DNA from: Gemmatimonadales bacterium
Lineage (GTDB): Bacteria > Gemmatimonadota > Gemmatimonadetes > Gemmatimonadales > GWC2-71-9
DNA length: 44,675 nt
Reading direction: 5' to 3'
Assembly: GCA_035707305.1 (NCBI GenBank)
Contig: DASSUE010000187.1
Span: 1-44,675 of the forward strand
A program made the position numbers and the translations under genes. This document shows positions 2,959 through 31,951 of this stretch, in pieces. Positions within the stretch are counted from its first letter, which is position 1, and each line of letters opens with the position of its first letter. Below the pieces are notes generated by a model that ran no database searches, was not told the DNA's origin, and saw only the letters and a list, made by a program, of their open reading frames with translations.

Positions 2959-2959
2959 G

Positions 2960-4966
2960 TTACCTCCCGACAGCAGCCGTTCCAGCCGTGTGAGCATGGG
3001 ACGACTGCGCATGATCGGTGGTGGCCGGCGTGGTTCCCCGGCGGTCGAACGCCATCTCCCCCTGGCCGTTCCGATAGGCTGCCAGCGGGCGCCCGCTCGG
3101 CACGATCTCCAGGTAGCCCTGCATCTCCTGGTGGAGTGCCGAGCAGAAGTTGGTGCAATAGTACGGATACACGCCCGACTTCCGCGCCACGAACTTCAGT
3201 GTCTTGGTCTCGCCCGGATCGATCACGATGTTCTTGTCGAACGCGACCAGACCGAATCCATGGATCTCATCCCGCGCCTGCTCGGCGTTGGTGATGTGCA
3301 GGACCACGGTGTCGCCTTCCTGCACTTGAATGCGACCGGGCTCGAAATAACTCCGGATGGCATACACCTTCCCCTCGACGGTGCGAGTGGCCGCGTTGCG
3401 GATCACCCTGGCGTCGGCCGGAGCCCAAATGGCATTGGGGTCGTGACTCTCCGCTTTCGGATAGAACTCGATCGGCTTGATCACGTCCCGATGCACTAGC
3501 TGCGCGAAGTGCGGCTCCGGCTCGGTGAATGCTTCGTACGTCATCACCATCTTCTGACCGGTGATGTCGATCAGCTGCGAGCTCTCCGGGATCGACGGGC
3601 CCACGTTCAGGTGCCGGCCCTTCGACATCTTGTTCATCGCGACCAGGAAGTCGCCCTTGGGGTGCCGGGTGTCGCCATGCGCGGTCACCAGGTGTCCCAC
3701 GTTGAACTGCACCGGGATCTTATCCAGCACCAGCGACTTCGGGTCGGTGCCGGGCGCGTACGGCGGCAGCTTCCATTTTGCGATCGCGCTCTCGACGTAG
3801 AGCGAGGTGTAGGCATTGCCCCTGCCGTCGAACTGGGTATGGAGCGGACCGAGTCCGACCGGCACTTCCATCAGCACGGCCGACTCGTAGCGAAGCACTG
3901 GAATCCCGTCCTCGCTTCCGGTGAAGTCCTTCTTGTCGATCGCCTCGCGAATCTTCGTGAAGGAGAACACGGTCGAGGTCGGCTGCAGCTTGCCCGAGCA
4001 GACCACGTATTCCCCGCTGGGATCTACGTCCACGCCGTGGGGGCTCTTCCCGCAGGCGATCAGATACATGACACCGGGTACCTTCGCCGGGTCGATCACC
4101 TTCAGGCCGCCAGCCTCGAACGTCCGGCCTGCGGCCGCTGCTGCTTCCGCCGCCTTCCAGTTCACGATGGCGACGTAATCCTTGTCCCGCTGGGTGCTCG
4201 AGGTTTCGAGCTTGCCGGTCGCCCGCTCGGCGTTATACGAGGTCCAGAAGGCCCAGTCCACGGACGGCCCCTTGCCGGTGGCGCCGAGATCCCAGTTGAA
4301 CGGCGGCGTCATGATCTGCCAGCCGATGCTCATCGCTCCGCTCCTCGGGTCCACCTTGATCCCTGTCACGGCGCCCTTGTACTTGGTCGCATAGTCCTCC
4401 AGCGGCTCGTACTTCGAGGCCATCGGCGCGGAGAAGCGAGTCGCGACCAGGGCGTACTCGGTGTTGTCGGTGACCATCGATGAGCCGTGGTTCCCCATCG
4501 TGTTGGGGATCGGCCCGAGGATCTGCTTGGTCTTGAGGTCACGCAGGTCGATGCGGGCGATGCGGTTGTTCGCATTGTCGTTCACGAACAGCCACCGACC
4601 GTCGTAGTCGCCGGCAGTCTTGGAGAGCGCGGGGTGGTGCACGTCGCCCCAGGTATAGCTCCCCATCATCGCCTTGGTTTCCTCGTCGAAGCCGTAGCCG
4701 GTGCCCGGATAGAGACCGAACACCGGGATCGTGGCGATGTGGCGCATCGATGGCACGCCGGCCACGAACACCTGCCCGGAATGCCCTCCGGAGTAGAAGA
4801 GGTAGTAGTCGTCGAAATCGCCCGGCTTCACGTAGGTGGCAAGGGCCGCCTTCTGCACATCACCCGTCGCCATCGGCCGTTGACCGGGGGCTTGGGGCTT
4901 GGTGCCGCTGCAGGCGGCGAGGCTCACGAGAGTGAAAAGCGCGGCGCGATACGCAGCTCTGGGCAT
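2960..4966 (-). CDS. nosZ: Nitrous-oxide reductase NosZ, clade II (Sec/lipobox signal)
   Basis: 668 aa. C-terminal CuA motif YYCTNFCSALHQEMQGYLEIV (C-x3-C-x3-H-x2-M) with an upstream HGFG His. Propeller region contains WGDVHHPA. The N-terminus MPRAAYRAALFTLVSLAAC has no twin-arginine motif. Strong RBS AAGGAGGA just upstream of the ATG at 4966. Confidence 0.95.
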   Translation of the reverse strand: MPRAAYRAALFTLVSLAACSGTKPQAPGQRPMATGDVQKAALATYVKPGDFDDYYLFYSGGHSGQVFVAGVPSMRHIATIPVFGLYPGTGYGFDEETKAMMGSYTWGDVHHPALSKTAGDYDGRWLFVNDNANNRIARIDLRDLKTKQILGPIPNTMGNHGSSMVTDNTEYALVATRFSAPMASKYEPLEDYATKYKGAVTGIKVDPRSGAMSIGWQIMTPPFNWDLGATGKGPSVDWAFWTSYNAERATGKLETSSTQRDKDYVAIVNWKAAEAAAAAGRTFEAGGLKVIDPAKVPGVMYLIACGKSPHGVDVDPSGEYVVCSGKLQPTSTVFSFTKIREAIDKKDFTGSEDGIPVLRYESAVLMEVPVGLGPLHTQFDGRGNAYTSLYVESAIAKWKLPPYAPGTDPKSLVLDKIPVQFNVGHLVTAHGDTRHPKGDFLVAMNKMSKGRHLNVGPSIPESSQLIDITGQKMVMTYEAFTEPEPHFAQLVHRDVIKPIEFYPKAESHDPNAIWAPADARVIRNAATRTVEGKVYAIRSYFEPGRIQVQEGDTVVLHITNAEQARDEIHGFGLVAFDKNIVIDPGETKTLKFVARKSGVYPYYCTNFCSALHQEMQGYLEIVPSGRPLAAYRNGQGEMAFDRRGTTPATTDHAQSSHAHTAGTAAVGR

Positions 4967-4977
4967 AGAATCCTCCT

Positions 4978-5412
4978 TCAGTCGTCGTCTTCAACTTCGA
5001 GTTCGCCCGTCATTCCAAGGGCGGCGTGCGGATCGCACTGGAAGAAGTACTCGCCGGGCGTGAGCGTGACCGGCACATCGAGCGTCTGGCCTGGGAGCTG
5101 GAGCAGCTCGGTCGCGGGAGGAAGTCCCTGTACGCCCGGGTTCTTCTCCGCGGGGAAGTGGAAGTTGTGCACGCCGCTCACCAGCGTGAGGCGAAGCACG
5201 TCCCCCGGTTTGGCTTCCACCTCCTTGGGCTCGAAGTAGTTGCCCTTGTCGTCCGAGATCATCTTGATCGCGATGACCGAGCCAGTCGGCGCGGCCGGCG
5301 CGGCGGCGGCGGCTGGCGCGCTCTCAGTGGTCGCCGGTTCGTTCCTGGACCGCTCGCCACAGGCGGTCAGTCCGGCGGTGAGCACCACGGCGGCGAGAAT
5401 GGCTGGCTTCAC
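4978..5412 (-). CDS. Cupredoxin (type-1 blue copper) lipoprotein, first gene of the nos operon
   Basis: 144 aa. Lipobox LTAC followed by an Ala/Pro linker. Type-1 Cu ligand pattern VHNFHF ... C-D-P-H-A-A-L-G-M (C-x2-H-x4-M). GTG start preceded by GGAAGGAG. The stop lies 11 nt before the nosZ start. Confidence 0.8.
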   Translation of the reverse strand: MKPAILAAVVLTAGLTACGERSRNEPATTESAPAAAAAPAAPTGSVIAIKMISDDKGNYFEPKEVEAKPGDVLRLTLVSGVHNFHFPAEKNPGVQGLPPATELLQLPGQTLDVPVTLTPGEYFFQCDPHAALGMTGELEVEDDD

Positions 5413-5452
5413 GGTCGCTCCTTCCGAGTGTCGAGCTGGGTCGGATGCCCCG

Positions 5453-5497
5453 AAGCTACCGGCGACGGTTCAAGCCGCTGATGAAGGCATTGTGAAG
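5453..5497 (-). promoter_or_regulatory. Candidate response-regulator box plus -10 for the cupredoxin-nosZ operon
   Basis: The minus strand reads CTTCAC-aatgc-CTTCAT-cagcgg-CTTGAA-n10-TAGCTT. This is the same phased-repeat architecture found at about nine other promoters in the window (see findings). An inverted GTGAAGG lies just upstream at 5501-5507. Confidence 0.5.
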
Positions 5498-5534
5498 CTT
5501 CCTTCACGGCTGGCCGGCTCTCGCCCGCGTCGGC

Positions 5535-5580
5535 TTGACAATTGGAATATTGTATATAATCATGAGCATATGATGAATAT
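5535..5580 (+). promoter_or_regulatory. AT-rich promoter/operator region upstream of the Rrf2 regulator gene
   Basis: A ~45-bp AT-rich island in a G+C-rich genome: TTGACA (5535-5540), TATAAT (5555-5560, only a 14-nt spacer), inverted repeat ATCAT-n6-ATGAT (5560-5575) and direct repeat GAATAT (5545, 5575). It ends 20 nt before the rrf2 ATG. Confidence 0.4.
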
Positions 5581-5600
5581 CGGGTGAGAGAGCGTTTCGC

Positions 5601-6020
5601 ATGCTTTCCCAGACCGCGCAGTATGCCCTCCGCACGGTAGTGCTCATTGCCGCTCGACCGCCGGACCAGGCCGTGTCGGTCGAGGAGATCGCGAGCGAGC
5701 TCGGCGTGCCGCGAAACTACCTGTCCAAGACCCTTCATCAGCTCGCGCGGGCCGGGGTGCTGCGCTCTACGCGTGGTCCCGGGGGCGGCTTCCGACTCGC
5801 GGTGCCGGCCGCGCGGCTTCCCTTGGTACGGATCATCGAGCGGTTCGACGACATCGGGACCGGCCGACGCTGCCTCCTGGGTCAGCCGCAGTGCAGCGAC
5901 CGGAAGGCGTGCCGGGCGCATGACCGCTGGAAGGCGGCGGGCGAGGCGATCGTGGCCTTCTTCCGCGACACCACCGTCGCCGACCTGCTCGACGGCCATC
6001 GGAGCGCGGTGGCGGGGTAG
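5601..6020 (+). CDS. Rrf2-family transcriptional regulator (NsrR/IscR-like, Fe-S type)
   Basis: 139 aa. N-terminal wHTH MLSQTAQYALRTVVLIA...VSVEEIASELGVPRNYLSKTLHQLARAGVLRSTRGPGGGFRLA. Three-Cys cluster C-x6-C-x5-C (CLLGQPQCSDRKAC). Confidence 0.85.
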   Translation: MLSQTAQYALRTVVLIAARPPDQAVSVEEIASELGVPRNYLSKTLHQLARAGVLRSTRGPGGGFRLAVPAARLPLVRIIERFDDIGTGRRCLLGQPQCSDRKACRAHDRWKAAGEAIVAFFRDTTVADLLDGHRSAVAG

Positions 6021-6046
6021 GACGGGGCTGAAGGAGATCGACGCAC

Positions 6047-6511
6047 ATGGACTGGTTCGTTCGGGCCTTCATTAAGGCCAGCGTGGCCTGGCTCTCGGCG
6101 GGGGTCACCCTCGGCGTGGCCATGGCCGTGCACCCGCCGTGGGTGATCTATCGTCCGGCCCACATTCACCTCAACGTGCTGGGGTTCGTGGCGATGATGA
6201 TCTTCGGGGTGGGCTATCATGTGCTGCCGCGCATCGCGGGCCACCCCCTGGGTCACCCAAGACTTGCCGCCGCGCACTGGTGGCTGGCGAACATCGGCCT
6301 TGCCCTGTTCGTCGCCGGCCTCGTGGCCCGCGCCCACACGGTCGCGGTCGCGCCGGCGGTGCTGGGGGCGGGGGCGGCGCTGTCGGCGGCCGGCGCCTAT
6401 GCCTTCGCATGGAACATCTGGCGCACGCTCGCCGCCGCGGGCCGGCGCCAGGCTTCGACTGATCGGGGAACGCCGCCCCGCAGGCGCGCGCTGCCGATCG
6501 CGGCGCACTGA
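6047..6511 (+). CDS. 4-TM membrane protein with haem-copper-oxidase helix-X-like AHxH motif (paralog A)
   Basis: 154 aa with four hydrophobic helices. AHIHLNVLGFVAMMIFGVGYHVLPR resembles the COX1/NorB helix X segment (AHFHYVLSMGAVF...WFP). RBS GAAGGAG upstream. Lies between rrf2 and nrfH. Confidence 0.6.
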   Translation: MDWFVRAFIKASVAWLSAGVTLGVAMAVHPPWVIYRPAHIHLNVLGFVAMMIFGVGYHVLPRIAGHPLGHPRLAAAHWWLANIGLALFVAGLVARAHTVAVAPAVLGAGAALSAAGAYAFAWNIWRTLAAAGRRQASTDRGTPPRRRALPIAAH

Positions 6512-6515
6512 CGCG

Positions 6516-6950
6516 GTGGATCGGCTCGTTCAGCGTTACCTGAAGACGGCTATCGGATTTCTCGCCCTTGGCCTCGTGCTCGGCGCACTGATGATCATCC
6601 GACGCGAGCTCCAGGGAGTTTACCCACCGCCGCACTGGATCAGCGCGCATACCCACGCGCTGCTGGTCGGGTTCGTAATGATGCTGATCCAGGGAGTCGC
6701 GCTCTGGATGTTTCCGCGGCCGGACCAGGCTGACCTCCGCTACCGACCTGCGCTCGCGGAATTGGCCTACTGGCTGGTGGCACTATCCACGGTGCTGCGC
6801 CTGGCTGGCGAACTACTTCGCCCCACCGTGGACGCAGTTGCCCTACGGTGGCTCGTGGTCGGCGGGGGGGTGGGGCAAGTCCTCGGAATCCTCGTCTTCT
6901 TCGTAAACATGTGGCCCCGGATCCGCTCCGCGGGAGCCCGCACCCGCTGA
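6516..6950 (+). CDS. 4-TM membrane protein, paralog B of 6047-6511
   Basis: I place the start at GTG 6516, in frame with track ORF 6219-6950 and 5 nt after the paralog A stop. It begins VDRLVQRYLKTAIGFLALGL. AHTHALLVGFVMMLIQGVALWMFPR aligns with the paralog A motif. The part of the track ORF upstream of 6516 overlaps gene A and looks like non-coding Arg/Pro-rich sequence. Confidence 0.55.
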   Translation: MDRLVQRYLKTAIGFLALGLVLGALMIIRRELQGVYPPPHWISAHTHALLVGFVMMLIQGVALWMFPRPDQADLRYRPALAELAYWLVALSTVLRLAGELLRPTVDAVALRWLVVGGGVGQVLGILVFFVNMWPRIRSAGARTR

Positions 6951-6992
6951 CCGGTTCTTGCTCATCACGGCCGTTCAGCCTTAACCTGCGCC

Positions 6993-7535
6993 ATGCCGCA
7001 GGTGCCCACCGGGGCCGGACCGGTTCTGGCAGCGGCGGCCGTCGGACTGGCCGTCGGGCTGGGTGCCTTCACGTTCGGGTATGCGAAGGGTGCCTCCTAT
7101 CTCAGCACCGATCCCGCCGTCTGCGCCAACTGCCACATCATGGGCGAGCACTTCACGGCCTGGCAGCGGTCGAGCCATCGGCAGGCCGCGGCGTGTGCCG
7201 ACTGCCACATGCCGCACGATGTCGTTGGGAAATACGTCGCGAAGGCGTCGAACGGCTTCTGGCATTCGCTCGCCTTCACTACGGGGAACTTCCCCGATCC
7301 ATTGCAGATCAAGCCGCACAACCGCGCCATCACCGAGCACGCCTGTCGCCATTGTCACGGGGACGTCGTGGCGGCGATCGATCCGGCGGACGGCCCGGCG
7401 GACTTCGCAATCCGGTCGGCCTTCGCCGGAGGAGCCGCTGCCGAGCGGCCGCAGATTCACGATGGGCCGATCGACGCAGGCTGGAGCGACTCCTGCATCC
7501 GTTGTCATACCTATGTAGGGCACATGGTGCGGTGA
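6993..7535 (+). CDS. nrfH: NrfH, membrane-anchored tetrahaem NapC/NirT-family quinol dehydrogenase
   Basis: 180 aa with an N-terminal TM helix. Four CxxCH motifs (CANCH, CADCH, CRHCH, CIRCH). Immediately upstream of nrfA. Confidence 0.9.
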   Translation: MPQVPTGAGPVLAAAAVGLAVGLGAFTFGYAKGASYLSTDPAVCANCHIMGEHFTAWQRSSHRQAAACADCHMPHDVVGKYVAKASNGFWHSLAFTTGNFPDPLQIKPHNRAITEHACRHCHGDVVAAIDPADGPADFAIRSAFAGGAAAERPQIHDGPIDAGWSDSCIRCHTYVGHMVR

Positions 7536-7557
7536 CCCGAGTGGACCGGAGAGCATT

Positions 7558-9051
7558 ATGACCGAACCACCGGACTCCTCCAGCGACGTCAGGCCCGCCG
7601 CCCGGCGGACCGCCCGCTGGATCGTGATCGCCGCGGTCTCATCGGCGCTTGCAGCCCTCGCGCTCGGCGCTCTGCTCACGAACATCTTCGAACGCAAGCA
7701 GGAGGCACGAAACCCGTTCTACCGGGTCGTGGAGTTGACCGACAGCACGATCGATCCCGCGATCTGGGGCAAGAATTTCCCGCAGCAGTACGACGACTAC
7801 CGCAAGACAGTGGACATGGTTCACACCCGCTATGGCGGCAGCGAAGGAACGCCCCGCAATCCGACTGCGATCGATCCCCGCCGAGTCGTAGCCCAGAGCC
7901 GGCTGGAGGAGGATCCACGTTTGATGCGGATGTGGGCGGGCTACGCATTTGCCCGGGATTTCCGGGAGGAGCGCGGCCATGCCTACATGCTGGATGACCA
8001 GGTCTTCACGGGGCGGCAGCAGGCTGCACCGCAGCCCGGCGCTTGCCTACACTGCCACGCCTCGATGTACGTCGCCTACAAACGTGCCGGCGCCGGCGAT
8101 CTGATCGCGGGCTTCGAGCGGATCAATCCAATGCCATATGCCGAGGCGAAGGTGCTGGCCGGCAACCATCCGGTTGCATGCATCGACTGCCACGATCCGG
8201 CGACGATGGAGCTGCGGGTGACGCGGCCAGGATTTCTGGAAGGAATCCGGACCCTCAAAGCGTCGCAGGGGGTGCGCGCGTACGACGTGAATCGGGATGC
8301 CTCGAGGCAAGAGATGCGGACGTACGTGTGCGGCCAGTGCCATGTGGAGTACTACTTCAAGGGCAAGGAGAAGCGGCTCACCTATCCGTGGGACCGTGGC
8401 CTCAAGGTGGACAGCATCCTGTCGCACTACGAGGCAAGTGGGCACACGGATTGGATCCACGAGCGCTCCGGCGCCCCCGTTCTCAAGGCCCAGCACCCCG
8501 AGTTCGAGATGTACAGCCAAGGGGTGCATGCCCGCTCGGGAGTGGCGTGCGCCGACTGTCACATGCCCTACGAGCGCCGCGGTGCGCTCAAGATCAGTGA
8601 TCACCACGTGCGCAGCCCATTGCTGAACATCAATCAGGCGTGCCAGACCTGTCACAAGATCTCGGAGGCCGAGCTTCGCGACCGGGTGTATCTGATCCAG
8701 GATCGCACGTTCGAAATGCGGAACATCGCCATCGACGCACTTCTGGATCTGGTCACCGGCATCCAACGCGCGCGTGCGGCGGATAGCACCGCGCCGGTCG
8801 TGGCGAAAGCGCAGCGCTACCAGCGCGCAGCGCAGTTCTTCGCCGACTTCGTGGAAGCAGAGAACTCGATGGGTTTCCACGCCGACCAGGAGGCGGTGCG
8901 CATTCTCGGCAACTCGATCAATTTCTCGCGCCTCGGCCAGGCCGTGCTCAGGGGCGAGCGGGTACCGGACGCGCCCCTCGAGGGCGCCAGCGGTTCGGCG
9001 CACCAGCTGCCGCGGGCCGCGCGGCCGGCTGAACCGATAGATCGGCGCTAG
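7558..9051 (+). CDS. nrfA: Pentahaem cytochrome c nitrite reductase NrfA (ammonia-forming), CxxCH-type active-site haem
   Basis: 497 aa with an N-terminal anchor/signal. Five haem motifs CLHCH, CIDCH, CGQCH (in the conserved CGQCHVEYYF), CADCH and CQTCH. The first motif is CxxCH, not the classical CxxCK. Confidence 0.9.
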   Translation: MTEPPDSSSDVRPAARRTARWIVIAAVSSALAALALGALLTNIFERKQEARNPFYRVVELTDSTIDPAIWGKNFPQQYDDYRKTVDMVHTRYGGSEGTPRNPTAIDPRRVVAQSRLEEDPRLMRMWAGYAFARDFREERGHAYMLDDQVFTGRQQAAPQPGACLHCHASMYVAYKRAGAGDLIAGFERINPMPYAEAKVLAGNHPVACIDCHDPATMELRVTRPGFLEGIRTLKASQGVRAYDVNRDASRQEMRTYVCGQCHVEYYFKGKEKRLTYPWDRGLKVDSILSHYEASGHTDWIHERSGAPVLKAQHPEFEMYSQGVHARSGVACADCHMPYERRGALKISDHHVRSPLLNINQACQTCHKISEAELRDRVYLIQDRTFEMRNIAIDALLDLVTGIQRARAADSTAPVVAKAQRYQRAAQFFADFVEAENSMGFHADQEAVRILGNSINFSRLGQAVLRGERVPDAPLEGASGSAHQLPRAARPAEPIDRR

Positions 9052-10864: not shown

Positions 10865-10898
10865 ATCGTAGCGGGGCGCGAGTGAAGCGATCGTGAAG
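10865..10898 (-). promoter_or_regulatory. Candidate response-regulator box plus -10 for the yceI operon
   Basis: The minus strand reads CTTCAC-gatcg-CTTCAC-n11-TACGAT. The -10 candidate sits inside the perfect 12-bp palindrome GATACTAGTATC (10856-10867). Confidence 0.5.
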
Positions 10899-11974: not shown

Positions 11975-12405
11975 ACGCCGTGCGACTCAGTTCAAGAGGA
12001 AGTGGATATCTCCGACCGCATGCGGCCGAAACGGGCGGCTCGGCCCTGCTTGTGGATGTTAGTCAGCAGCAGCAGCCGAGATGGTCGGCGAGGCGCCGGA
12101 AGCTCTGGGGCCAACCACCCCGCGTGCTGCGCCACTCCTCTGCGAGGGCAGTTCGCGGCCGTCTGAGAATCCTTTGCACCGCAGCTCATGATTCCTTCAT
12201 GCGCCGAGAACAACGTTTTGTCGCCCGGCTTCTCAAAGTCCGCGAACGCCACGGGCCGTGGACCTGGTCGAGATACTCCGGCCTAAGGGACAGATGCTCG
12301 GGGAACGATCGACGGTCCGTTGAGTGCAGAGCGGGTCGAATTTCGGGCGCATGCCACGCTCGAGATCGCGCTTGTAAGCACGCGTCCCGACTTCCCGGAG
12401 GACCA

Positions 12406-13020
12406 ATGCGCAGTCCAGCAGACGCCATCAACAGCTATGTCACCGACATGCTTGCCATCGAGGAGCATATCGAGAAGGCCGTGGCGGGCCAGATCCAATC
12501 CTTGGCGGACCATCCGCAGGTCGGGGCGGAGCTAGAGACAATCCAACGCTGGATCCGGCTCCATATCGCGAACCTGAAGCAATTGACGGGAACGCGAGGC
12601 TTGGCCACAACGACCGGCGCAATCAAGCGGGCGGGTTCCAGCGTCCTCGGACGGGCCGCGGGAGCCATCGACCTTCTCCGTCACGAAGGACAGGCCAAGA
12701 ACCTTCGTGACGATTATACCGCTTTCAGCTTGGCGGCCATCGGCTACGTGATGCTGCACACCACTGCCCTAGCGTTGGGAGACAAGGAAGTAGCCAATCT
12801 CGCCTACCAGCACCTGGGGAATTACGCCCGGGGGCTGATCGCATTGCAGTACATCCTCCCGGCGGTGGTCGTGCGGTCGCTTCAGACGGAGGGGCTGCCA
12901 GCTCGTGAGGACGTCCTCACGGATGTGTTCCGGAACATGGAGGTGGTCTGGGGGCTCGGCGGGACCGTGCGGACCCCTACCCGTAGGGGAACCACGGTCC
13001 CAGACCGGCCGAGCCACTAG
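12406..13020 (+). CDS. Ferritin-like / DUF892 (YciE-YciF-like) stress protein, tentative
   Basis: The ATG at 12406 is preceded by GGAGG. The upstream part of the track ORF is Arg-rich and implausible as protein. MRSPADAINSYVTDMLAIEEHIEKAVAGQI... and later DDYTAFSLAAIGYVMLHTTALALGD suggest a helical-bundle ferritin-like fold. The assignment is from pattern memory only. Confidence 0.4.
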   Translation: MRSPADAINSYVTDMLAIEEHIEKAVAGQIQSLADHPQVGAELETIQRWIRLHIANLKQLTGTRGLATTTGAIKRAGSSVLGRAAGAIDLLRHEGQAKNLRDDYTAFSLAAIGYVMLHTTALALGDKEVANLAYQHLGNYARGLIALQYILPAVVVRSLQTEGLPAREDVLTDVFRNMEVVWGLGGTVRTPTRRGTTVPDRPSH

Positions 13021-13228: not shown

Positions 13229-13245
13229 CTTCACAACATCTTCAT
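13229..13245 (+). promoter_or_regulatory. Candidate response-regulator box upstream of P-family copy 1
   Basis: CTTCAC-aacat-CTTCAT with an exact 11-bp period, 44 nt upstream of the ATG at 13290. Confidence 0.5.
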
Positions 13246-13289: not shown

Positions 13290-13766
13290 ATGGCTGCCGC
13301 CTCGATCGCTCCGCTGGTTGCCCGAGACACCCCAATGACGGCAGATGCGCTGGCGCCGCTTCACGAACAATGGCTCGCCGCCGTGCGGAAGGCCTTCGAT
13401 CCTGTGCTGCTCGGCTCGCGCGCGATTCGGGATCGCTGGACAGCCTTGCGGCACCTCGGTCAGGTCACCGAACGGCTGGAGCAGGAGCGGTGGATGATCG
13501 ATCGAACGCCGGGTCTCGCGCCGTCCTCTCGTGCGAGAATCGAGAATGGCTTCAACGCCCTCCAGCGGGTTCGGGAGCAGGTCGGCAAGGTTGGAGGCCG
13601 GGCGGCCTCTCACGGCTCGCTCGTCTACCTGCTCGCGCATTTCGTGGACATGCTGGCGGACTGGTATGCCACGATCGAGCACGCGGCAGCCCGGGTTCCG
13701 TTGAACGAGCTCCCGACCAAAGCTTTGGCGGCGTTGTCGCAGCTCGAGTCGGGGAACGGGAGGTAA
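13290..13766 (+). CDS. Uncharacterised P-family protein, copy 1 (~158 aa, predicted all-helical)
   Basis: RBS AGGAG. Aligns along its whole length with 14126-14614, 21510-22001 and 42554-43012. Shared motifs are L-x-P-L/M-H-x-x-W, LLG-x-x-x-I-x-DRW-x-A-x-R-Y/H-L, E-R, H-x-G-x-L and W-x4-E. Confidence 0.7.
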   Translation: MAAASIAPLVARDTPMTADALAPLHEQWLAAVRKAFDPVLLGSRAIRDRWTALRHLGQVTERLEQERWMIDRTPGLAPSSRARIENGFNALQRVREQVGKVGGRAASHGSLVYLLAHFVDMLADWYATIEHAAARVPLNELPTKALAALSQLESGNGR

Positions 13767-13830
13767 ATAGACGTCGCGCCCTGCCGATCTCCATCTCATC
13801 GTGCGACCGGACTGGAGCGTCGGCATGACG

Positions 13831-14040
13831 GACGGTCGCGCCCGGGTGGTCGCGGGTGATCCTCACCGGAGGCGGCTCCGACGCGACCGACGGGGTGCAA
13901 GGTGTGAAAAGCGCGAGGTGGTCTGCTGATCGCCCAGGACCGCGCCACCTCGCAGGTCTTCGGGATGCCGGGAGCGGCCATCGCAACCGGCCTGGTTGAC
14001 AAAACCCTTCCACTGGCGCTTGAGCATCTGCCGGCTCAGC
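13831..14040 (+). pseudogene. cheB: Remnant of the 3' end of a cheB (chemotaxis methylesterase) gene, frameshifted
   Basis: Three reading frames together spell DGRARVVAG / VILTGGGSDATDGVQGVKSAR / GGLLIAQDRATSQVFGMPGAAIATGLVDKTLPLALEHLPAQ. This matches the CheB C-terminus (GVILTGMGxDG ... AQxExxxVVFGMPxxAI). No upstream catalytic part is present, and at least two frameshifts are needed. Confidence 0.55.
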
Positions 14041-14044
14041 GGAG

Positions 14045-14100
14045 CTTCAAGGCCGCTTCCTGGCTGGTTCACGGTGTCTTCACGCCGGGCAGTGCATCGT
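14045..14100 (+). promoter_or_regulatory. Four phased repeats plus -10 upstream of P-family copy 2 (best example of the box)
   Basis: CTTCAA (14045), CTTCCT (14056), GTTCAC (14067) and CTTCAC (14078) have an exact 11-bp period. An 11-nt spacer then leads to CATCGT (14095-14100). Confidence 0.55.
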
Positions 14101-14125
14101 GAGGTGGACTCAGCAGGAGCCGCTC

Positions 14126-14614
14126 ATGCCCGCCACGCTGAACACCCGTTGCGCGCCCCGCTCCGCCGCGATGCTCGACGAGGTGCTCACACCGATGCAT
14201 CGAGACTGGGCCGCATGTGTGGCACGGGCGTGTGCCCCGGCGTTGCTGGGCACGTCCACGATCTGGGATCGCTGGAGCGCGGTGCGGTATCTGAATGATG
14301 CGTTTCAGGAGCACCTGGGGCAGGAACGCGAGCTGATCCGGCGGCTTCCCCGGATTGACTCGCAGACGCGTGAGCGGCTCGCGGCGGTGTTCGAGACTCT
14401 CGAGCGGCTCCGCGCCCGGATCGATTCAGCTGGCCGGCGGCATCATACCGGGGGTCTCGTCACCGTCCTGCTCAAGAACTTGCTGGAGCAGCTCGATGCC
14501 TGGTGCGCGGCGACCGAGCATGTCGCTGGATCCATTCCTCTGGCCCTACTGCCTGACCAGGCACTCGACCTCCTGATTGAGATCCAGGCACACGCGCCCC
14601 GCCATCGGGGGTGA
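14126..14614 (+). CDS. Uncharacterised P-family protein, copy 2
   Basis: I place the start at ATG 14126, preceded by AGGAG. The track ORF starts at GTG 14099. LTPMHRDW..LLGTSTIWDRWSAVRYL..RRHHTGGL..AWCAATEH..IPLALLP is closest to copy 3. Roughly half of positions look identical by eye. Confidence 0.7.
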   Translation: MPATLNTRCAPRSAAMLDEVLTPMHRDWAACVARACAPALLGTSTIWDRWSAVRYLNDAFQEHLGQERELIRRLPRIDSQTRERLAAVFETLERLRARIDSAGRRHHTGGLVTVLLKNLLEQLDAWCAATEHVAGSIPLALLPDQALDLLIEIQAHAPRHRG

Positions 14615-14690: not shown

Positions 14691-15338
14691 ATGATCTTCG
14701 CCAATCGCTATGACGCGGGGCGCCGCCTGGCGGGGCTCCTTGAACGGTACCGGGCGGAGCGCCCCGTACTCCTCGCGCTGCCCCGAGGTGGCGTGCCGGT
14801 GGCATTTGAAGTGGCGCGGGCGCTCGGGGCGCCGCTGGACGTTTGCGTCGCCCGAAAGTTGGGTGTTCCCGGCGCCGAGGAAGTTGCGATGGGGGCGGTC
14901 GCCGGCGGAACTGCCGTGGTCGACCACGAGCTGATCGCTCGGCTCGGGATTCCGAATACGTACGTCCAGCGGGTGGTGGCCCGGGAAATCGCGGAGATGG
15001 CCCGCCAGGAAGGGACCTTCCGGCGTGGTCGCGCACCTATCGACGTCGCGGGGCGCACCGTTATCCTGGTCGACGACGGCCTGGCCACTGGAGCGACTGC
15101 GTACGCCGCGGTCAAGGCGCTCAGGACGCGCAACCCCCGTCGCATCGTATTTGCGTCGCCGGTTTGTGCCCCTGACGGCGCCGAAATGCTCCGTGGGGTC
15201 GCCGACGACGTGATCTGTGTCGACTGCCCGGCCGACTTCCGCGCGGTCGGACTCTGGTATGAGGATTTTTCGCCGGTGAGCGACGCCGAGGTGGTGGATT
15301 GCCTCGAAGCCGTAGCGCCGGGGAGGATTTCAGCATGA
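14691..15338 (+). CDS. Phosphoribosyltransferase-family protein (stress-island type)
   Basis: The ATG at 14691 is preceded by GGAAGGAG. It has LALPRGGVPVAFEVARALGAPLDV and the PRPP-binding loop VILVDDGLATGAT. This is the same type as the N-terminal half of mycobacterial PRTase-hydrolase fusions. Confidence 0.8.
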   Translation: MIFANRYDAGRRLAGLLERYRAERPVLLALPRGGVPVAFEVARALGAPLDVCVARKLGVPGAEEVAMGAVAGGTAVVDHELIARLGIPNTYVQRVVAREIAEMARQEGTFRRGRAPIDVAGRTVILVDDGLATGATAYAAVKALRTRNPRRIVFASPVCAPDGAEMLRGVADDVICVDCPADFRAVGLWYEDFSPVSDAEVVDCLEAVAPGRISA

Positions 15339-16051
15339 GCCCGGTGACAATGACACACGGTGCGCGAGCCGTGATGATCCCGGCCGATGGAGTACAACTG
15401 GCCGGCGAGCTGGCCTGGCCGCAGCATCCGGGCGGGATGGTGCTGTTCGCACACGGAAGCGGCAGCGGCCGACTCAGCCCGCGCAACCGCTTCGTGGCGG
15501 AGCGATTGCGGGATGCCGGCCTGGCGACGCTCCTGTTCGATCTGCTTACGGAGGGGGAAGCGGGCGACCGGCACAACGTCTTCGATATCCCACTGCTGGC
15601 GCGACGGCTGGTCGCGGCAACCACGTGGGCGGCGCAGCAGGCCGATCTCGCCGGGCTTCCCGTGGGGTATTTCGGCGCCAGCACCGGTGCCGCTGCGGCG
15701 CTCACGGCAGCGGCGTTGTCCCCTCTGGCAGCCGCCGCTATCGTCTCACGCGGCGGCCGGCCCGACCTCGCCGGCAATGCGTTGGACCGGGTAACCGCTC
15801 CGACGCTGTTGCTGGTGGGAGGCCGTGACCCGGTTGTGCTCGACCTCAACCGTGCAGCGCTCGCGCGGCTGCGGGGGCCGAGGGAACTGGTGATCGTACC
15901 CGGTGCCGGACATCTCTTCGAGGAGCGCGGTGCCATGGAAGCAGTCGCGGATGCGGCGGCCGGATGGTTCGTGCGCTACCTGGAACTGGAGCGGGTCTGG
16001 CGGGGCGCCCATTTGCGAAATGATCCGTCGGTGGCTGCCGGGCCGTGGTGA
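15335..16051 (+). CDS. Dienelactone-hydrolase-like alpha/beta hydrolase
   Basis: ATGA overlap with the PRTase stop, with GGGAGG upstream. Contains VLFAHGSGSGRLSPRNRFVAERL, GYFGASTGAAAAL (nucleophile elbow G-x-S-x-G) and VIVPGAGHLFEE. Confidence 0.75.
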   Translation: MSPVTMTHGARAVMIPADGVQLAGELAWPQHPGGMVLFAHGSGSGRLSPRNRFVAERLRDAGLATLLFDLLTEGEAGDRHNVFDIPLLARRLVAATTWAAQQADLAGLPVGYFGASTGAAAALTAAALSPLAAAAIVSRGGRPDLAGNALDRVTAPTLLLVGGRDPVVLDLNRAALARLRGPRELVIVPGAGHLFEERGAMEAVADAAAGWFVRYLELERVWRGAHLRNDPSVAAGPW

Positions 16052-16297: not shown

Positions 16298-16376
16298 GCG
16301 GCGTGTGGTGAGCCATGCGACCGTTCTCACCTGACTCCAAGATACTGAATCGTCGTGAAATGACCTTGAATCGAGG

Positions 16377-18035
16377 ATGAAGATCGATTCTCGATCGTAC
16401 AGCAGCGTTATCAGCCTGCTGGTGTCGTTGGCTGCGCTCGGCATGCCGGCAAGTGCCACGGCCCAGAGCGGTGACGCCGTGGTGATCCGGGGCCTGATCG
16501 CCGCCGCGCGGGTCCCGGGCGCCCGGTGGCCCGACTTTCCACGCTACCTGGATGACGTCGCCCGGCTGTACGCATCACACAACGGTGTTCCGGTCTGGTT
16601 TCGTGAAGGCCGACTCTCATCCGCGGGGCAGGCAGCTATCGGCAGTCTCCTCGGCGCCGCCAGTCACGGGCTCGCGCCGGAGGACTACGACGCTGCGCCG
16701 CTCGACAGCCTCGCGCAGGGCAGCGGTCCCAGCCTGCCTCCTGCCGAGGTAGGCCGGCTGGACCTGATGCTCAGCGTCGATCTCATCCGTTACCTCGATG
16801 ACCTGCGCCGCGGCCGGAGCAAGGGAGTGGTCCGGAGCGGCACCGTGGCCCGAATGGACCCGCCCGACTGGGCCGACGCCATCGACCAGGGGTTGCGCGG
16901 AGACAGCATCGGCAAGCTGGCCGATCAGGCGGCTCCGGCCCTCACCCAGTATCGCAACCTGCGGGCATTGCTCGCGCGGTATCGTCGGTTGGCCAGAGAC
17001 ACGGTAGCGTTCGCGGCGTTGCCGGCGGTGCCACCAGCCATGCCGGGGCAGCCGTACGCCGCGCTCACGGAGCTGAAGCGGCGCCTCGTACTGGTGGGCG
17101 ATCTGGCCGGCGCGGGCAGCGGCGACACGCTGTACACCGGCGAAGCGGTTGAAGCCGTTCGCCAGTTTCAGCGACGGCACGGCCTCGAGCCGGACGGCGT
17201 CATCGGTCCCGCCACGTCGGCCGCGTTGAACGTGCCGCCGGCCCGTCGGGTACGGCAGATCGAGCTCGCGCTCGAGCGGATCCGGTGGCTCCCGCCGCTG
17301 GGACGGGAGCCATTTCTCGTGGTCAACATTCCCGCGTTCTATCTCTTCGGCTTCGACTCCGCCGGAGGCACCGGCGCTCCGTCGTTCACCAGCCGCGTGG
17401 TCGTCGGGCGGGCTCTCGACACCGAGACACCGGTGCTCTACGAGTCGCTTCGGTACGTAGAGTTCCGACCGTATTGGAACGTTCCCCGGAGCATCGTCCT
17501 CAACGAGATTCTCCCACGGCTGCGCCGCGACCCGGAATACCTTGGCAGGTATCATATGGAAGTCGTTGGCCCAGCCGACAGGCTGGTGGACGATACAGCC
17601 AGCTCCGACCTGCTTCGCCGGCTCACCGGAGGAGAGATCCGAATCCGCCAGCGACCGGGCCTATCCAACGCGCTGGGCCTGGTCAAGTTCGTTTTTCCCA
17701 ATGCGGCCAGTGTCTACCTGCACGATACGCCCGACACCGAGCTGTTCAGCCGCTCCCGCCGCGACTTCAGCCATGGCTGCATCCGGGTCGAGGAGGCCGA
17801 AGCGCTCGCCGTCTGGGTGCTGCGGGGCCAGCCCGCGTGGGACAGCGCACAGGTGCACGCCGCGGTCAAAGGACCCGGAACGAGGCGAGCGTTTCTCACG
17901 CGGCCAATGCCGGTGGCCATCCTCTACACGACCGCCGTCGCTACGCCGTCGGGAGAGGCGTGGTTCTTCGAGGACATCTACGACCACGATCGAGCGCTGG
18001 AAGAAGTTCTGCGGGCTGGCCCATCACCACCGTGA
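16377..18035 (+). CDS. L,D-transpeptidase (YkuD domain) with PG-binding domain, YcbB/LdtD-like
   Basis: 552 aa with a signal peptide. PG_binding_1-like EAVRQFQRRHGLEPDGVIGPATSAAL. Catalytic YLHDTPDTELFSRSRRDFSHGCIRVEE (SHGC). Confidence 0.85.
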   Translation: MKIDSRSYSSVISLLVSLAALGMPASATAQSGDAVVIRGLIAAARVPGARWPDFPRYLDDVARLYASHNGVPVWFREGRLSSAGQAAIGSLLGAASHGLAPEDYDAAPLDSLAQGSGPSLPPAEVGRLDLMLSVDLIRYLDDLRRGRSKGVVRSGTVARMDPPDWADAIDQGLRGDSIGKLADQAAPALTQYRNLRALLARYRRLARDTVAFAALPAVPPAMPGQPYAALTELKRRLVLVGDLAGAGSGDTLYTGEAVEAVRQFQRRHGLEPDGVIGPATSAALNVPPARRVRQIELALERIRWLPPLGREPFLVVNIPAFYLFGFDSAGGTGAPSFTSRVVVGRALDTETPVLYESLRYVEFRPYWNVPRSIVLNEILPRLRRDPEYLGRYHMEVVGPADRLVDDTASSDLLRRLTGGEIRIRQRPGLSNALGLVKFVFPNAASVYLHDTPDTELFSRSRRDFSHGCIRVEEAEALAVWVLRGQPAWDSAQVHAAVKGPGTRRAFLTRPMPVAILYTTAVATPSGEAWFFEDIYDHDRALEEVLRAGPSPP

Positions 18036-21435: not shown

Positions 21436-21480
21436 TTTCCTCCCTGCTTCACCTGTTCTTCATGATCCCTGCTCCAATCT
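21436..21480 (+). promoter_or_regulatory. Candidate response-regulator box plus -10 for the P3 / phosphorylase / Prs operon
   Basis: TTTCCT (21436), CTTCAC (21447) and CTTCAT (21458), followed by an 11-nt spacer and CAATCT (21475-21480). The ATG is at 21510. Confidence 0.5.
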
Positions 21481-21509: not shown

Positions 21510-22001
21510 ATGTCGATGACGCTGACCGTCCGGTCCGAGTCGCGGCGGAGCGCCACTGTTGGCGACGTCCTCACTCCGCTGCACGAGCGTTGGCTCGCTG
21601 CCGTTGAGGCGGCAGTGCAACCCGCGCTGCTTGGTACCAGCACGATCTGGGACCGCTGGGCCGCCACGCGGTATCTCGAGGAGCGGTTCGCCACCAGACT
21701 GGAGCTGGAACTCTCCCTGGTGCGTCTGACTGACGTCAGCACTCGGGACCGCGAGCGGATCGAGGCCGATTACACCCGGATCGAGCAGCTCCGCGGCGCG
21801 ATCGAAGCAGTGGCCAGCCGGCATCACACGGGTGGGCTGATCATGTCCCTGCTGCAGGAGTTGCTGAGCTCGCTCACGGGCTGGGTGATCGATGTGGAGC
21901 AGGCGACCGCCCGGATTCCGCTTGCAGCGCTGCCCGGCGAGGCGGTCCGGCTGCTCACAGAACTTGAAGCCGACCCGTTGGAAACGACGGGGCAGCAGTG
22001 A
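21510..22001 (+). CDS. Uncharacterised P-family protein, copy 3
   Basis: The ATG at 21510 is preceded by AGGAGG. LTPLHERW..LLGTSTIWDRWAATRYL..SRHHTGGL..GWVIDVEQ..IPLAALP. Its stop overlaps the GTG of the next gene (GTGA at 21998-22001). Confidence 0.7.
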   Translation: MSMTLTVRSESRRSATVGDVLTPLHERWLAAVEAAVQPALLGTSTIWDRWAATRYLEERFATRLELELSLVRLTDVSTRDRERIEADYTRIEQLRGAIEAVASRHHTGGLIMSLLQELLSSLTGWVIDVEQATARIPLAALPGEAVRLLTELEADPLETTGQQ

Positions 22002-23533
22002 CCACCAGCATCACCGTGCCTCAGGCGGCGCCGCGCGGTGCGGCGGCGCGCGCGCGACGTATCGGCGTCGACACCGGCCAGGAGGCGGTTGCCTACTTCC
22101 GAGCCGACTCCGCGGTCGTGCGGTCGGAGGGGTTCGATTGCGCCACCAGGGTCTGGGTGCGCTGCACCGGACGCGAAACGCTCGCGACGGTTCACGTGGT
22201 CTCCGGCCTCCTGAATCCGAATGAGGTCGGGCTGTCGGAGTCGGCCTGGCGCCGATTGGACCCGACTCCCGGTGCGCGGCTTGAGTTTGCGCATGCGGAG
22301 CCACTCGAGTCGGTGCGGCACGTGCGGTCCAAGGCGTTCGGCGCCCGGCTCGATGCGGGGGCGCTGCGATCGATCGTGCACGACATCGCCGAAGGCCTTT
22401 ACTCGGACATCCACCTGGCGTCGTTCGTCACCGCGTGCGCCGGCCGCAGGCTCGACCGCAACGAAGTTACCGATCTCACGGTGGCGATGCTCGAAGAAGG
22501 CAATCGGCTGCGGTGGGACCGGGAGGTGGTCGCCGACAAGCACTGCGTCGGCGGACTCCCGGGGAACCGCACGTCGTTGATCGTGGTGCCGATCGCCGCG
22601 GCGGCGGGCCTGCTCGTGCCGAAGACGTCATCGCGTGCGATTACCTCGCCCGCCGGGACCGCTGATACGATGGAGATGCTGGCGCCGGTCGACCTGGACG
22701 TGGGCGCGATGCGTCGCGTGGTGGAGCGGGAAGGCGCCTGCATCGTCTGGGGCGGATACGGCCGGCTGAGTCCAGCGGACGACGTGCTGATCCGGGTCGA
22801 GCGTCCGCTTGAGCTGGACAGCCAGGGGCAGTTGGTCGCCTCGGTGCTCTCCAAGAAGGCGGCGGCCGGCGCGACCCGCGTGCTGATCGATGTGCCGGTG
22901 GGCCCCACGGCGAAGGTCCGGTCCCCCGCCGAGGCGGAGCGGCTGTGCGCGGAACTCCGCGCGGTCGGGCGGGCTGTCGAGCTCGAAGTTCTGCCGGTGG
23001 TGACGGATGGGATGCAACCCGTTGGGAAGGGGATCGGGCCGGCGCTCGAAGCGCGGGATGTTTTGGCCGTGCTCGAGGGCAGTGCTGGGGCTCCGGCGGA
23101 CCTGCGCGAGCGGTCACTCCAGCTCGCGGGGCGCCTGCTGGAGCTGGGCGGCGCGGCGGCTGCGCCCACCGGACGCGCCACCGCCGGAGCCATTCTGGAC
23201 GACGGCCGAGCCTGGCGGAAGTTCCAGGCTATCTGCGACGCGCAGGGCGGCCTGCGGGAGCCACCCCGGCCGCGGCACATTCGCGCGGTCCCAGCCCGTT
23301 GCTCGGGACGGGTTTCCGCGATCGACAATCGCAGGCTCGCGCGTCTGGCTCGCTTGGCGGGAGCGCCGCATGATCCCGGTGCCGGGCTGGAGTTGCACGT
23401 GCGCATCGGTGACACCGTCGTCCCCGGTCAACCGCTGCTCACCCTGCACGCCGCCGCCCAAGGCGAGCTGGATTACGCCGTGGCTTACGCGGGCAGTGCG
23501 CGTGACATCATCGCCTTGGAGCGCAACCGATGA
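21998..23533 (+). CDS. Thymidine-phosphorylase-family protein, long form (AMP-phosphorylase-like with N-terminal extension)
   Basis: 511 aa. Family core HLASFVTACAGRRL...ADKHCVGGLPGNRTSLIVVPIAAAAGLLVPKTSSRAITSPAGTADTME plus a ~90-aa N-terminal domain, as in the archaeal AMP phosphorylase / 'putative thymidine phosphorylase' group. Confidence 0.8.
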   Translation: MTTSITVPQAAPRGAAARARRIGVDTGQEAVAYFRADSAVVRSEGFDCATRVWVRCTGRETLATVHVVSGLLNPNEVGLSESAWRRLDPTPGARLEFAHAEPLESVRHVRSKAFGARLDAGALRSIVHDIAEGLYSDIHLASFVTACAGRRLDRNEVTDLTVAMLEEGNRLRWDREVVADKHCVGGLPGNRTSLIVVPIAAAAGLLVPKTSSRAITSPAGTADTMEMLAPVDLDVGAMRRVVEREGACIVWGGYGRLSPADDVLIRVERPLELDSQGQLVASVLSKKAAAGATRVLIDVPVGPTAKVRSPAEAERLCAELRAVGRAVELEVLPVVTDGMQPVGKGIGPALEARDVLAVLEGSAGAPADLRERSLQLAGRLLELGGAAAAPTGRATAGAILDDGRAWRKFQAICDAQGGLREPPRPRHIRAVPARCSGRVSAIDNRRLARLARLAGAPHDPGAGLELHVRIGDTVVPGQPLLTLHAAAQGELDYAVAYAGSARDIIALERNR

Positions 23534-24492
23534 TCGTCCATTCTGCCGAGAATTCGCTGATTGCCGCGCTGCCGGGAAGCGAGCGGCTTGGGACCGATCT
23601 GGCCGAGCGACTCGGCGGCCGGCGTCAACTGGTCGAGATGCGGCGCTTCCCGGATGGTGAGTCGTACGTCCGAATCAATGGTCAGCTGCGGGACACACCG
23701 CTCGTGATCGTCGGACCGCTCGATCGACCCGACGAGAAGCTCCTGCCGCTGCTCCTCCTCGCCGCCACCGCACGCGAGCTCGGCGCCACCGAGGTGGGGC
23801 TGGTCGCACCCTACCTCGCCTATCTGCGGCAGGACCGTCGCTTCCGCCCCGGGGAGGCCGTGAGCGCGGTCCATTTCGCGAGGCTGTTGTCCGACCGCTT
23901 CGACTGGGTGGTGACTATTGAGCCGCACCTGCATCGCCTCCGAAATCTCGGCGACATCTACCAGGTGCCGGCCCGCGCGGTGAGTGCCGGACGGCTGATC
24001 GCCGCCTGGATTCGGGCCAACGTTCAGCGGCCCGTGATCATCGGCCCTGACGAGGAGAGCCGGCAGTGGGTGGAGCCGGTCGCTGCCGCGGCGGATGCCC
24101 CGTTCATCGTCGTGCGGAAATGCCGCGTCGGTGACTTCCACGTTGAGGTGTCGCTGCCGGACTTGGCAGCGTTCCGGGATCGAACACCCGTCGTTCTCGA
24201 CGACATCATATCAACGGGGGGCACGGTGGAGCAGATCGTTCGTATGCTGGTCGGCGCCGGATTTCCGGCTCCCGCCTCCATCGCGGTGCACGGGATATTC
24301 GCGGGCGACGCCTACGAGCGGATCGTCAACGCCGGTGCGAAGGTCATCGTGACCTGCAACACCATACCGCACGTGAGCAACGCTATCGATGTGACGGCTC
24401 ACTTAGCGGCAGCGGCGCGGGCGATGCTGGAGCGCACGGCGGAGGGATGGAACGAGCGTGCATCCCCGTCCGCAATCGCGGTGGAGCAATAA
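23530..24492 (+). CDS. Ribose-phosphate pyrophosphokinase (Prs)-family protein
   Basis: ATGA overlap with the upstream gene. Contains RRFPDGESYVRI, VAPYLAYLRQDRRF and the PRPP loop VVLDDIISTGGT. Confidence 0.8.
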   Translation: MIVHSAENSLIAALPGSERLGTDLAERLGGRRQLVEMRRFPDGESYVRINGQLRDTPLVIVGPLDRPDEKLLPLLLLAATARELGATEVGLVAPYLAYLRQDRRFRPGEAVSAVHFARLLSDRFDWVVTIEPHLHRLRNLGDIYQVPARAVSAGRLIAAWIRANVQRPVIIGPDEESRQWVEPVAAAADAPFIVVRKCRVGDFHVEVSLPDLAAFRDRTPVVLDDIISTGGTVEQIVRMLVGAGFPAPASIAVHGIFAGDAYERIVNAGAKVIVTCNTIPHVSNAIDVTAHLAAAARAMLERTAEGWNERASPSAIAVEQ

Positions 24493-26386: not shown

Positions 26387-26443
26387 GCCGCCCTCTCGCA
26401 CTTAGGCAAGTGCCCGGCGCAGGAGCGGGTGGCTTCGAGCGCT

Positions 26444-26553
26444 CCGGATTGTATTCCCGCGCGGTGTGATCGCACCACGAAGTTCACCGGCCGGAGCGCT
26501 GCGGGTCGGATGCGTCGCGAGCCATCCATCGCACGGCACGCCACCGCGCCACC
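26444..26553 (+). repeat. Copy 2 of the ~110-nt intergenic repeat (partner at 16188-16297)
   Basis: See copy 1. It fills almost the whole gap between the degraded USP gene and the archease gene, in the same absolute orientation as copy 1 although the flanking genes are on the opposite strand. Confidence 0.6.
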
Positions 26554-26555
26554 TC

Positions 26556-28663: not shown

Positions 28664-28754
28664 GGCTTCCGGGTCCTCGGCAGATGGTTGGCACCTGGCC
28701 GCCAACATGCGCCGACCAGGATGAGCCCGCGATGAAACCGCGGTCAAGATGCCT

Positions 28755-30158: not shown

Positions 30159-30164
30159 CGTCGG

Positions 30165-30530: not shown

Positions 30531-30558
30531 GGATCCCTCCAGGGCTCCGGGCACGGGG

Positions 30559-31908: not shown

Positions 31909-31951
31909 GCCTCGTAGGTACCAGCCGGGATCCTCTATCGCGGCGCCTCCA

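Follow-up and report, generated by a model that had tools for sequence, protein, structure and literature searches.

A family of predicted four-helix-bundle proteins associated with a dormancy-like gene island in Gemmatimonadales

Results

Four paralogous genes on one contig

The 44,675-nucleotide contig DASSUE010000187.1 of a Gemmatimonadales metagenome-assembled genome (MAG), analysed over its whole length and referred to as the window (67.5% GC), contains four open reading frames (ORFs) of one protein family, named c1 to c4 here (Table 1). All four are present with the coordinates and starts given in an initial annotation of this DNA, and NCBI holds their exact sequences, each under the name 'hypothetical protein [Gemmatimonadales bacterium]'. 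In BLASTP comparisons c2 and c3 share 45.8% identity over 155 residues (E 1.6e-41), in agreement with an earlier estimate by eye of about half, while c1 is 36% identical to c2 (E 6e-30) and 37% to c3 (E 1e-25). The fourth copy is, as had been noted, much more divergent: it shares 28% identity with c2 (E 4e-11) and 29.5% with c3 over a stretch of only 44 residues (E 8e-4), and c1 and c4 do not match significantly as a lone pair. The c4 subfamily is nevertheless picked up by the family profile with E-values of 1e-30 to 1e-45. The sequence motifs initially listed as common to all copies are complete in c1-c3 and only partly present in c4; in particular, the HH(T)GG motif ([HS]-H-[TG]-G) and H132 (residue numbering follows c2 throughout) are confined to the c1-c3 clade and are not family-wide.

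Codon-position GC contents of ~0.70/0.50/0.78-0.81 are gene-like for the contig, and AGGAG-type ribosome-binding sites precede c1, c2 and c3. Selective constraint was measured among close orthologues in other contigs, where a dN/dS of 0.12-0.51 indicates purifying selection. A word-index-free HMMER scan of 1.84 billion representative sequences returned 187 clusters with E<1e-3, 118 of them with E<1e-10. A GC content of 67.5% gives long open frames on both strands, which could make the ORFs spurious; against this stand the homologues in 187 clusters, the selection acting on them, the ribosome-binding sites, the confident structure models described below and a coding GC pattern that is stronger in the ORFs than in the antisense frames. 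The chance that the ORFs are spurious is hence negligible, and the idea that they are not translated is refuted in practice. Because of the paralogue E-values, the coding GC, the ribosome-binding sites, the dN/dS values and the breadth of the homologue set, the four ORFs are, by all sequence criteria applied, real and translated paralogues.

Table 1. Genes and direct-repeat boxes in the window. FAM, family member gene; USP, universal stress protein; PRTase, phosphoribosyltransferase; DLH, dienelactone hydrolase; TM, transmembrane.
Feature	Position	Strand	Remarks
c1 (copy 1)	13290-13766	+	158 residues; downstream of DUF892 gene, with its own box; HET8623474.1
c2 (copy 2)	14126-14614	+	162 residues; heads PRTase-DLH pair; HET8623475.1
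c3 (copy 3)	21510-22001	+	163 residues; stop overlaps GTG start of TP-like phosphorylase; HET8623482.1
c4 (copy 4)	42554-43012	+	152 residues; divergent old subfamily; last gene of USP-YgaP-FAM operon; HET8623503.1
DUF892 (ferritin-like) gene	12400-13020	+	upstream of c1; order repeated in a related JGI contig
PRTase	14694-15338	+	likely ATG at 14694, 79 nt past c2 stop
DLH-type alpha/beta hydrolase	15335-16051	+	ATGA overlap with PRTase
TP-like phosphorylase and Prs	21998-24492	+	TP of PRK04350/TIGR02645 type; Prs of PRK07199 type
Tandem-USP protein and YgaP-like TM protein	41494-42557	+	upstream of c4
OmpR-family response regulator	39456-40193	-	divergent from USP-YgaP-c4 operon; candidate box regulator
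GAF histidine kinase	40212-41423	-	paired with OmpR-family regulator; divergent from USP-YgaP-c4 operon
Box CTTCAC-N5-CTTCA	13229-13244	+	45 nt before c1 ATG
Box GTTCAC-N5-CTTCA (one mismatch)	14067-14082	+	43 nt before c2 ATG
Box CTTCAC-N5-CTTCA	21447-21462	+	47 nt before c3 ATG
Box CTTCAT-N5-CTTCA	41441-41456	+	before USP-YgaP-c4 operon

Size, distribution and history of the family

Nearly all representatives of the 187 clusters are stand-alone proteins of 150-170 residues, and for 184 of 185 retrieved proteins the best BLAST match is a family member from the window or from a Gemmatimonadales locus (30-100% identity). Two sequences were rejected as larger members: in P0105 (495 residues) a low-complexity N-terminal stretch resembles a wrong-frame extension, and P0137, a supposed multi-domain member, is an unrelated repeat protein that matches the RW-AVR motif only.

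A degenerate DNA motif coding for W-x-R-W-x-A-x-R-Y-L-x-[DE] was searched for in one genome per GTDB species. This gave 42 loci (other genome loci are denoted by L and a number), about 30 of which encode a family member according to a hidden Markov model (HMM). The HMM-confirmed loci all come from Gemmatimonadales/Gemmatimonadota MAGs, with the exception of one contig of a 'Bacillota' MAG, which is probably misbinned because its neighbouring genes encode proteins 67-72% identical to those of the window. The metagenomic representatives interleave with the Gemmatimonadales loci at 40-100% identity. So far, and provisionally, the family is confined to Gemmatimonadales/Gemmatimonadota.

Clustering and a neighbour-joining tree both separate a c4-type subfamily from the main type by a deep split and place c1, c2, c3 and the two copies of locus L014 in one young clade. 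These sequence relationships make c1-c3 a recent expansion within one lineage, whereas the subfamily of c4 is old and separate. With identities of 25-35% between clades, the family is fast-evolving. Pairs of copies within 8 kb are frequent (L001, L014, L018, L026, L035, L042 and L045). In another lineage, a conserved ORF of 83 codons without a Pfam match is located between two tandem family copies (L001, 10491-10742; L002, 1352-1603).

A predicted four-helix bundle without known relatives

The models predicted with AlphaFold2 (AF2) for c2 (pLDDT 86.1, pTM 0.80, from an alignment of 8 sequences) and c4 (pLDDT 86.1, pTM 0.81, 37 sequences) have the same topology, an up-down bundle of four helices followed by a short fifth, C-terminal helix; the long helices of c2 comprise residues 18-40, 46-72, 79-104 and 109-134. 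The protein is predicted to be a cytoplasmic four-helix bundle of ~155-165 residues, as the initial annotation had surmised from its all-helical appearance.

No characterised domain had been recognised in the sequence, and this holds for every search made. Scans of c1-c4 against Pfam (2025) and NCBIfam (2026) gave no match, four family and subfamily consensus sequences found nothing significant in Pfam, and sequence-profile searches of the PDB with 8- and 90-sequence profiles returned just designed coiled coils with E>0.02. A Pfam scan of 90 members yielded sub-threshold matches only, to VMAP-M8 (PF19969; 11/90) and Hemerythrin (3/90). The former, seen with the family consensus as well, cover helices 1-2 with E-values of 0.003-0.1; they remain below the gathering score (best 17.4 versus 27 bits), lack a vWA-MoxR context and probably reflect composition or helical similarity. 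Comparison by hhalign with the neighbouring DUF892 (ferritin-like) protein and with the DinB/DUF1572 four-helix bundles of the window gave a probability of 0.1% in each case. Foldseek searches of the PDB with the c2 and c4 models found no significant match, all E-values being at least 0.24. The structural neighbours are generic bundles, namely FAT, the vinculin tail, the talin rod, PsbQ and designed proteins; the four named natural ones share an up-down topology of four or five helices (TM-score 0.45-0.59), but with identities of 9-18% there is no sign of common ancestry. Hence, this is a new family without Pfam, NCBIfam or PDB representation, while its fold is generic and the regulon in which it occurs is of a familiar kind.

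Conserved residues and a candidate site

Conservation was counted over 90 aligned members and compared with a wider set of ~190-218 sequences, for which the values are similar apart from those of W50 and C127. The most strongly conserved positions are W126 (98%), H25 (97%), W50 (96%; 85% in the wider set) and R49 (91%), followed by W47 (88%), W28 (87%), E131 (86-88%), E67 (85-87%), R54 (81%), Y55 (72%) and C127 (64%; 75% in the wider set). On helical wheels drawn from the family alignment, H25, W28, E67, W126 and C127 lie on the core-facing side and E131 on its flank, while W47, R54 and Y55 point outward. With the modelled helices as a guide, H25, E67, R84 and E131 would all be near one end of the bundle, each 3-7 residues in from it.

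Of 169 full-length sequences, 99 have HECE at positions 25/67/127/131. Variants include HHCD (n=6) and HECD (n=8), and in four sequences glutamine occupies both 67 and 131 (HQFQ twice, HQLQ and TQFQ), all four of which lack C127. Such changes look like ligand exchange rather than random drift.

The direct-repeat box and its regulon

The initial annotation had placed a phased CTTCA box directly ahead of copies 1-3 and another at 41441, ahead of the operon containing copy 4, and all four boxes were found (Table 1). Allowing one mismatch, CTTCAY-N5-CTTCA occurs ten times in the window against an expectation of 0.53; the other six occurrences are at 5482-5497(-), 10883-10898(-), 16367-16382(-), 21200, 31970-31985(-) and 32022. 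Boxes also precede the Cpn60-USP, EreA, YceI-flavodoxin-DinB and cupredoxin-nosZ operons, and an alignment of the upstream regions reveals further TTC-containing half-sites at 11-bp phasing. We counted a gene or operon as part of the box regulon if a phased NTTCA-N6-NTTCA direct repeat lies 25-125 nt upstream of it, which is the case for c1, c2, c3 and the c4 operon. In other loci, this repeat is found within ~125 nt upstream of 29 of the 42 family genes, compared with a background of 0.027 per 230 nt, and the genes without a box are mostly internal in operons or situated at contig ends. No sigma-70-type promoters or intrinsic terminators were detected around c1 and c2, and no Rfam match anywhere in the window.

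OmpR/PhoB-family regulators usually bind direct repeats spaced by roughly one turn of the helix. Among regulators of this type, only the partner of the GAF kinase is consistently adjacent, and this pair stands beside the USP-YgaP-FAM genes in L004, L005, L006 and L042 as well. The CTTCA repeats are therefore most likely bound by this OmpR-type regulator. The regulon comprises USPs, Cpn60, BON, TreT, RtcB-archease, a release-factor homologue resembling Rv2629, nucleotide-salvage enzymes and nosZ, and looks like a low-oxygen or dormancy programme. A literature search for hypoxia regulons of Gemmatimonadetes found nothing.

In gene content the island is akin to two described systems, the DosR regulon of M. 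tuberculosis with its USPs, the PRTase Rv0571c and the RtcB protein Rv2631 (PMC5309233), and the lxa locus of B. cenocepacia with USPs, a small heat-shock protein and BON-type 'phospholipid-binding' proteins (PMC3721108). The DosR regulator is of the NarL type, whereas the adjacent regulator in the window is of the OmpR type. Like the USPs of these islands, the family consists of small, co-regulated proteins with several paralogues that accompany the same gene set (Hsp, BON, PRTase, RtcB; PMC5309233, PMC3721108); unlike the alpha/beta-folded USPs, it is predicted to be all-alpha, has no recognised nucleotide-binding motif and belongs to one lineage. A further parallel is Rv0572c, a small protein of the DosR regulon listed as 'not yet characterized' (PMC5309233): such proteins are also small hypotheticals in a dormancy regulon with a PRTase and RtcB, but the full HMMER scan of the family gave no sign of homology to them.

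Gene order in the window

According to Pfam and NCBIfam matches, the order in the window runs from DUF892, c1, c2, PRTase and DLH to an L,D-transpeptidase and a VTT protein, followed by BON and TreT on the minus strand and then by c3, the TP-like phosphorylase, Prs, RtcB and archease. The TP-like phosphorylase has an N-terminal extension and scores just under the AMP-phosphorylase cut-off. Further on lie a baeRF family-10 protein, a HAMP kinase with a receiver-only regulator, an EreA-like esterase, Cpn60 and a USP, and finally a P-type ATPase, the OmpR-type regulator and the GAF kinase (minus strand), divergent from the genes for the USP, the YgaP-like TM protein and c4. The overlaps reported earlier, GTGA between c3 and the phosphorylase gene and ATGA between the YgaP-like gene and c4, were confirmed. 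That copies 1 and 2 lead the PRTase-DLH pair is correct as to gene order; a coupling of c2 to the PRTase is not seen, given the gap between them.

The dormancy-like gene set (RtcB-archease, baeRF family-10, EreA-like esterase, Cpn60-USP) spans 24531-28747 and 30559-33720; the baeRF family-10 protein weakly matches the NCBIfam entry 'Rv2629 family ribosome hibernation factor'. Inside the island, the HAMP histidine kinase and the receiver-only regulator (30165-30668) form a second two-component pair at 28755-30668(-), which is kept in a syntenic JGI contig. The left end of the window (354-9051) carries genes of anaerobic respiration, nosF, nosD, nosZ with a cupredoxin, nrfH and nrfA, together with an Rrf2-family regulator (5601-6020) and a weakly COX1-like membrane protein (6047-6511). 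Conserved hypothetical genes without Pfam or NCBIfam match are located at 26466-27227, 34613-35632 and 43141-43920, and homologues of the last are again found in L004, L042 and L045, close to family genes or to the P-type ATPase.

Recurrent neighbours in other loci

Neighbours were tabulated from ORF and BLAST maps and from the called genes of homologue-encoding contigs. A family gene followed by TP, usually then by Prs, occurs in ten other loci in addition to the window and the JGI contig. The order USP-YgaP-FAM beside the block of GAF histidine kinase, OmpR-type response regulator and ATPase is found in L004, L005, L006 and L042, the family proteins of L005 and L006 being identical. Family genes are also located close to a P-type ATPase gene (L010, L046, L048), near PRTase-EreA-DLH (L041, L044, L034, L032, L025) and next to tandem-USP genes (L001, L018, L026, L029, L035, L045). 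As the linkages to TP-Prs, PRTase-EreA-DLH and USP-YgaP recur elsewhere, the non-random placement proposed for the four copies is confirmed, and roughly 30 further Gemmatimonadales loci share both the placement and the association with the box. In the syntenic JGI contig (genes at 1721-2913), a 226-residue protein with a CheB_methylest Pfam match stands in place of c2, with the c1 orthologue on one side and the PRTase on the other.

Discussion

A possible ligand-binding component of the regulon

Our preferred reading, to which we assign a probability of roughly 35%, is that of a generic regulon protein with a buried His/Glu/Cys/Glu site for a metal or a small ligand. H25 in helix 1, E67 in helix 2 and C127/E131 in helix 4 would form a buried polar site holding a metal ion or a small ligand, and the exposed, conserved patch of W47, R54 and Y55 on helix 2 may touch a partner. 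We favour this arrangement because of the helical-wheel placement of the residues, the shared bundle end and the HECE pattern with its variants. The protein would thereby serve as a small sensor or buffer, co-produced with the enzymes and USPs of the regulon, often by translational coupling, and its gene seems to move together with the box, in first position of various operons. The metal or small-ligand sensor suggested in the initial annotation is possible as far as the sequences go and gains some indirect support.

Several points weigh against this reading or limit its reach. The correlated substitutions are not phylogenetically independent, and C127 is missing from about a quarter of the members. 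The closeness of H25, E67 and E131 is deduced from helix register and distance from the helix ends, and a buried network of His and Glu might serve the structure only. That the regulator binds the box is deduced solely from adjacency and the arrangement of direct repeats, and a low-oxygen trigger would be read from gene content alone. The taxonomic restriction is provisional because a scan with a degenerate motif would miss divergent members.

How far the protein is tied to its neighbours bears on the adaptor role that had also been considered. If the protein were a regulatory or structural subunit dedicated to the TP-like phosphorylase and Prs, or to the PRTase and DLH, this would account for the frequent position directly before TP, the stop and start codons that overlap or abut wherever the TP start can be placed (L024, L043, L014 and c3) and the recurrence near PRTase-EreA-DLH. 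However, coupled TP-Prs pairs of the same subfamily (~63% identical) occur without a family member in a Burkholderiaceae MAG (L050/L051) and a marine TARA contig (L052/L053), 6001-8423; their TP and Prs genes overlap in these other phyla as well, by 4 nt in L052/L053, and a USP or beta-CASP metallo-beta-lactamase gene adjoins them. Family genes are also found alone, at the start of USP operons or as the last gene of the USP-YgaP operon, and the neighbour-joining tree interleaves TP-, USP-, PRTase- and ATPase-linked members, with c2, upstream of the PRTase, as sister to the TP-linked copy in L014. Because TP-Prs pairs exist without the protein and the tree does not follow the downstream gene, the adaptor role is weakened and a dedicated subunit appears quite unlikely; the protein is probably a generic regulon component and not the subunit of one enzyme. 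Such a component might equally be conceived without a ligand, as a structural or protective stress protein (a scaffold, chaperone-like protein or interaction hub) in which the polar core residues only stabilise the fold. Its many copies, fast evolution and regulon-wide occurrence resemble those of USPs or small heat-shock proteins, and FAT, vinculin tail and talin rod, among the structural neighbours, are protein-binding bundles, albeit with scores that are not significant. Near-invariance at the buried His, Glu and Trp positions, where E changes to H, to D or, in pairs, to Q, is more typical of a functional site, so that we regard a ligand-free protein as unlikely.

If the bundle does hold a ligand, the closest precedent would be a degenerate hemerythrin-like (HHE) domain, an iron protein for sensing or detoxifying O2 or NO, or for the repair of Fe-S clusters in the manner of RIC/YtfE. 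Hemerythrins (PF01814) are four-helix bundles of ~130-160 residues whose helix 1 carries a histidine and whose helices 2 and 4 carry carboxylates, as conserved here, and they occur in contexts of O2 and NO stress, to which the nosZ, nrfHA and Rrf2 genes of the window may be compared. c2 and c3 possess extra histidines (H63, H106/107, H132), the weak Pfam matches reach an E-value of 0.015, and the top Foldseek match of the c4 model is 3cax (E 0.24), which we take to contain a hemerythrin-like domain. The canonical di-iron site consists of five histidines and two carboxylates (H / HxxxE / HxxxH / HxxxxD). Four of these five histidines are absent from the family, in which H25 alone is conserved throughout and the extra ones are clade-specific. 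None of the sequence, profile or structure matches is significant, the consensus sequences miss PF01814 even at E<=10, no hemerythrin appeared in the PDB profile searches, and hhalign against the bacteriohemerythrin 4XPX gave a probability of 0.1%, with a single-sequence template and correspondingly low sensitivity. A hemerythrin origin is thus improbable. The single near-invariant histidine of a four-helix bundle encoded next to two-component genes also recalls histidine phosphotransfer (HPt) or Spo0B-like proteins, in which case H25 would be the phosphoryl acceptor linking the receiver-only regulator or the GAF kinase to the OmpR-type regulator. There is no Pfam match to HPt (PF01627), though, H25 is part of an H-x-x-W sequence predicted to face the core and not of an exposed HxxKG-type site, and four copies heading metabolic operons would be atypical for a phosphorelay component, which makes phosphotransfer a very remote prospect.

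The reading as a ligand-binding regulon protein can be extended to a bolder one. The family would then be a new class of four-helix-bundle sensor for a metal or a gas/redox ligand with a His/Glu/Cys/Glu site, specific to Gemmatimonadales and copied along with the box of the response regulator as one 'promoter plus first gene' cassette, through which new operons, for nucleotide salvage and USPs, would be drawn into the dormancy regulon and their products gated post-translationally. We consider this extended version a long shot. On present evidence, the family is a lineage-restricted 'hypothetical' with a generic fold and not demonstrably a new mechanism.

Significance

Few members of the Gemmatimonadota, which are abundant in soil, have been cultured, and little is known about their stress physiology. 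The family is among the most frequent genes of a conserved DosR/lxa-like island with an OmpR-type regulator, and the protein is a clean sequence marker for both the regulon and the lineage. A new family entry would follow from a structure or a ligand, and knowing what the protein binds would show how the phylum enters or survives low-oxygen dormancy.

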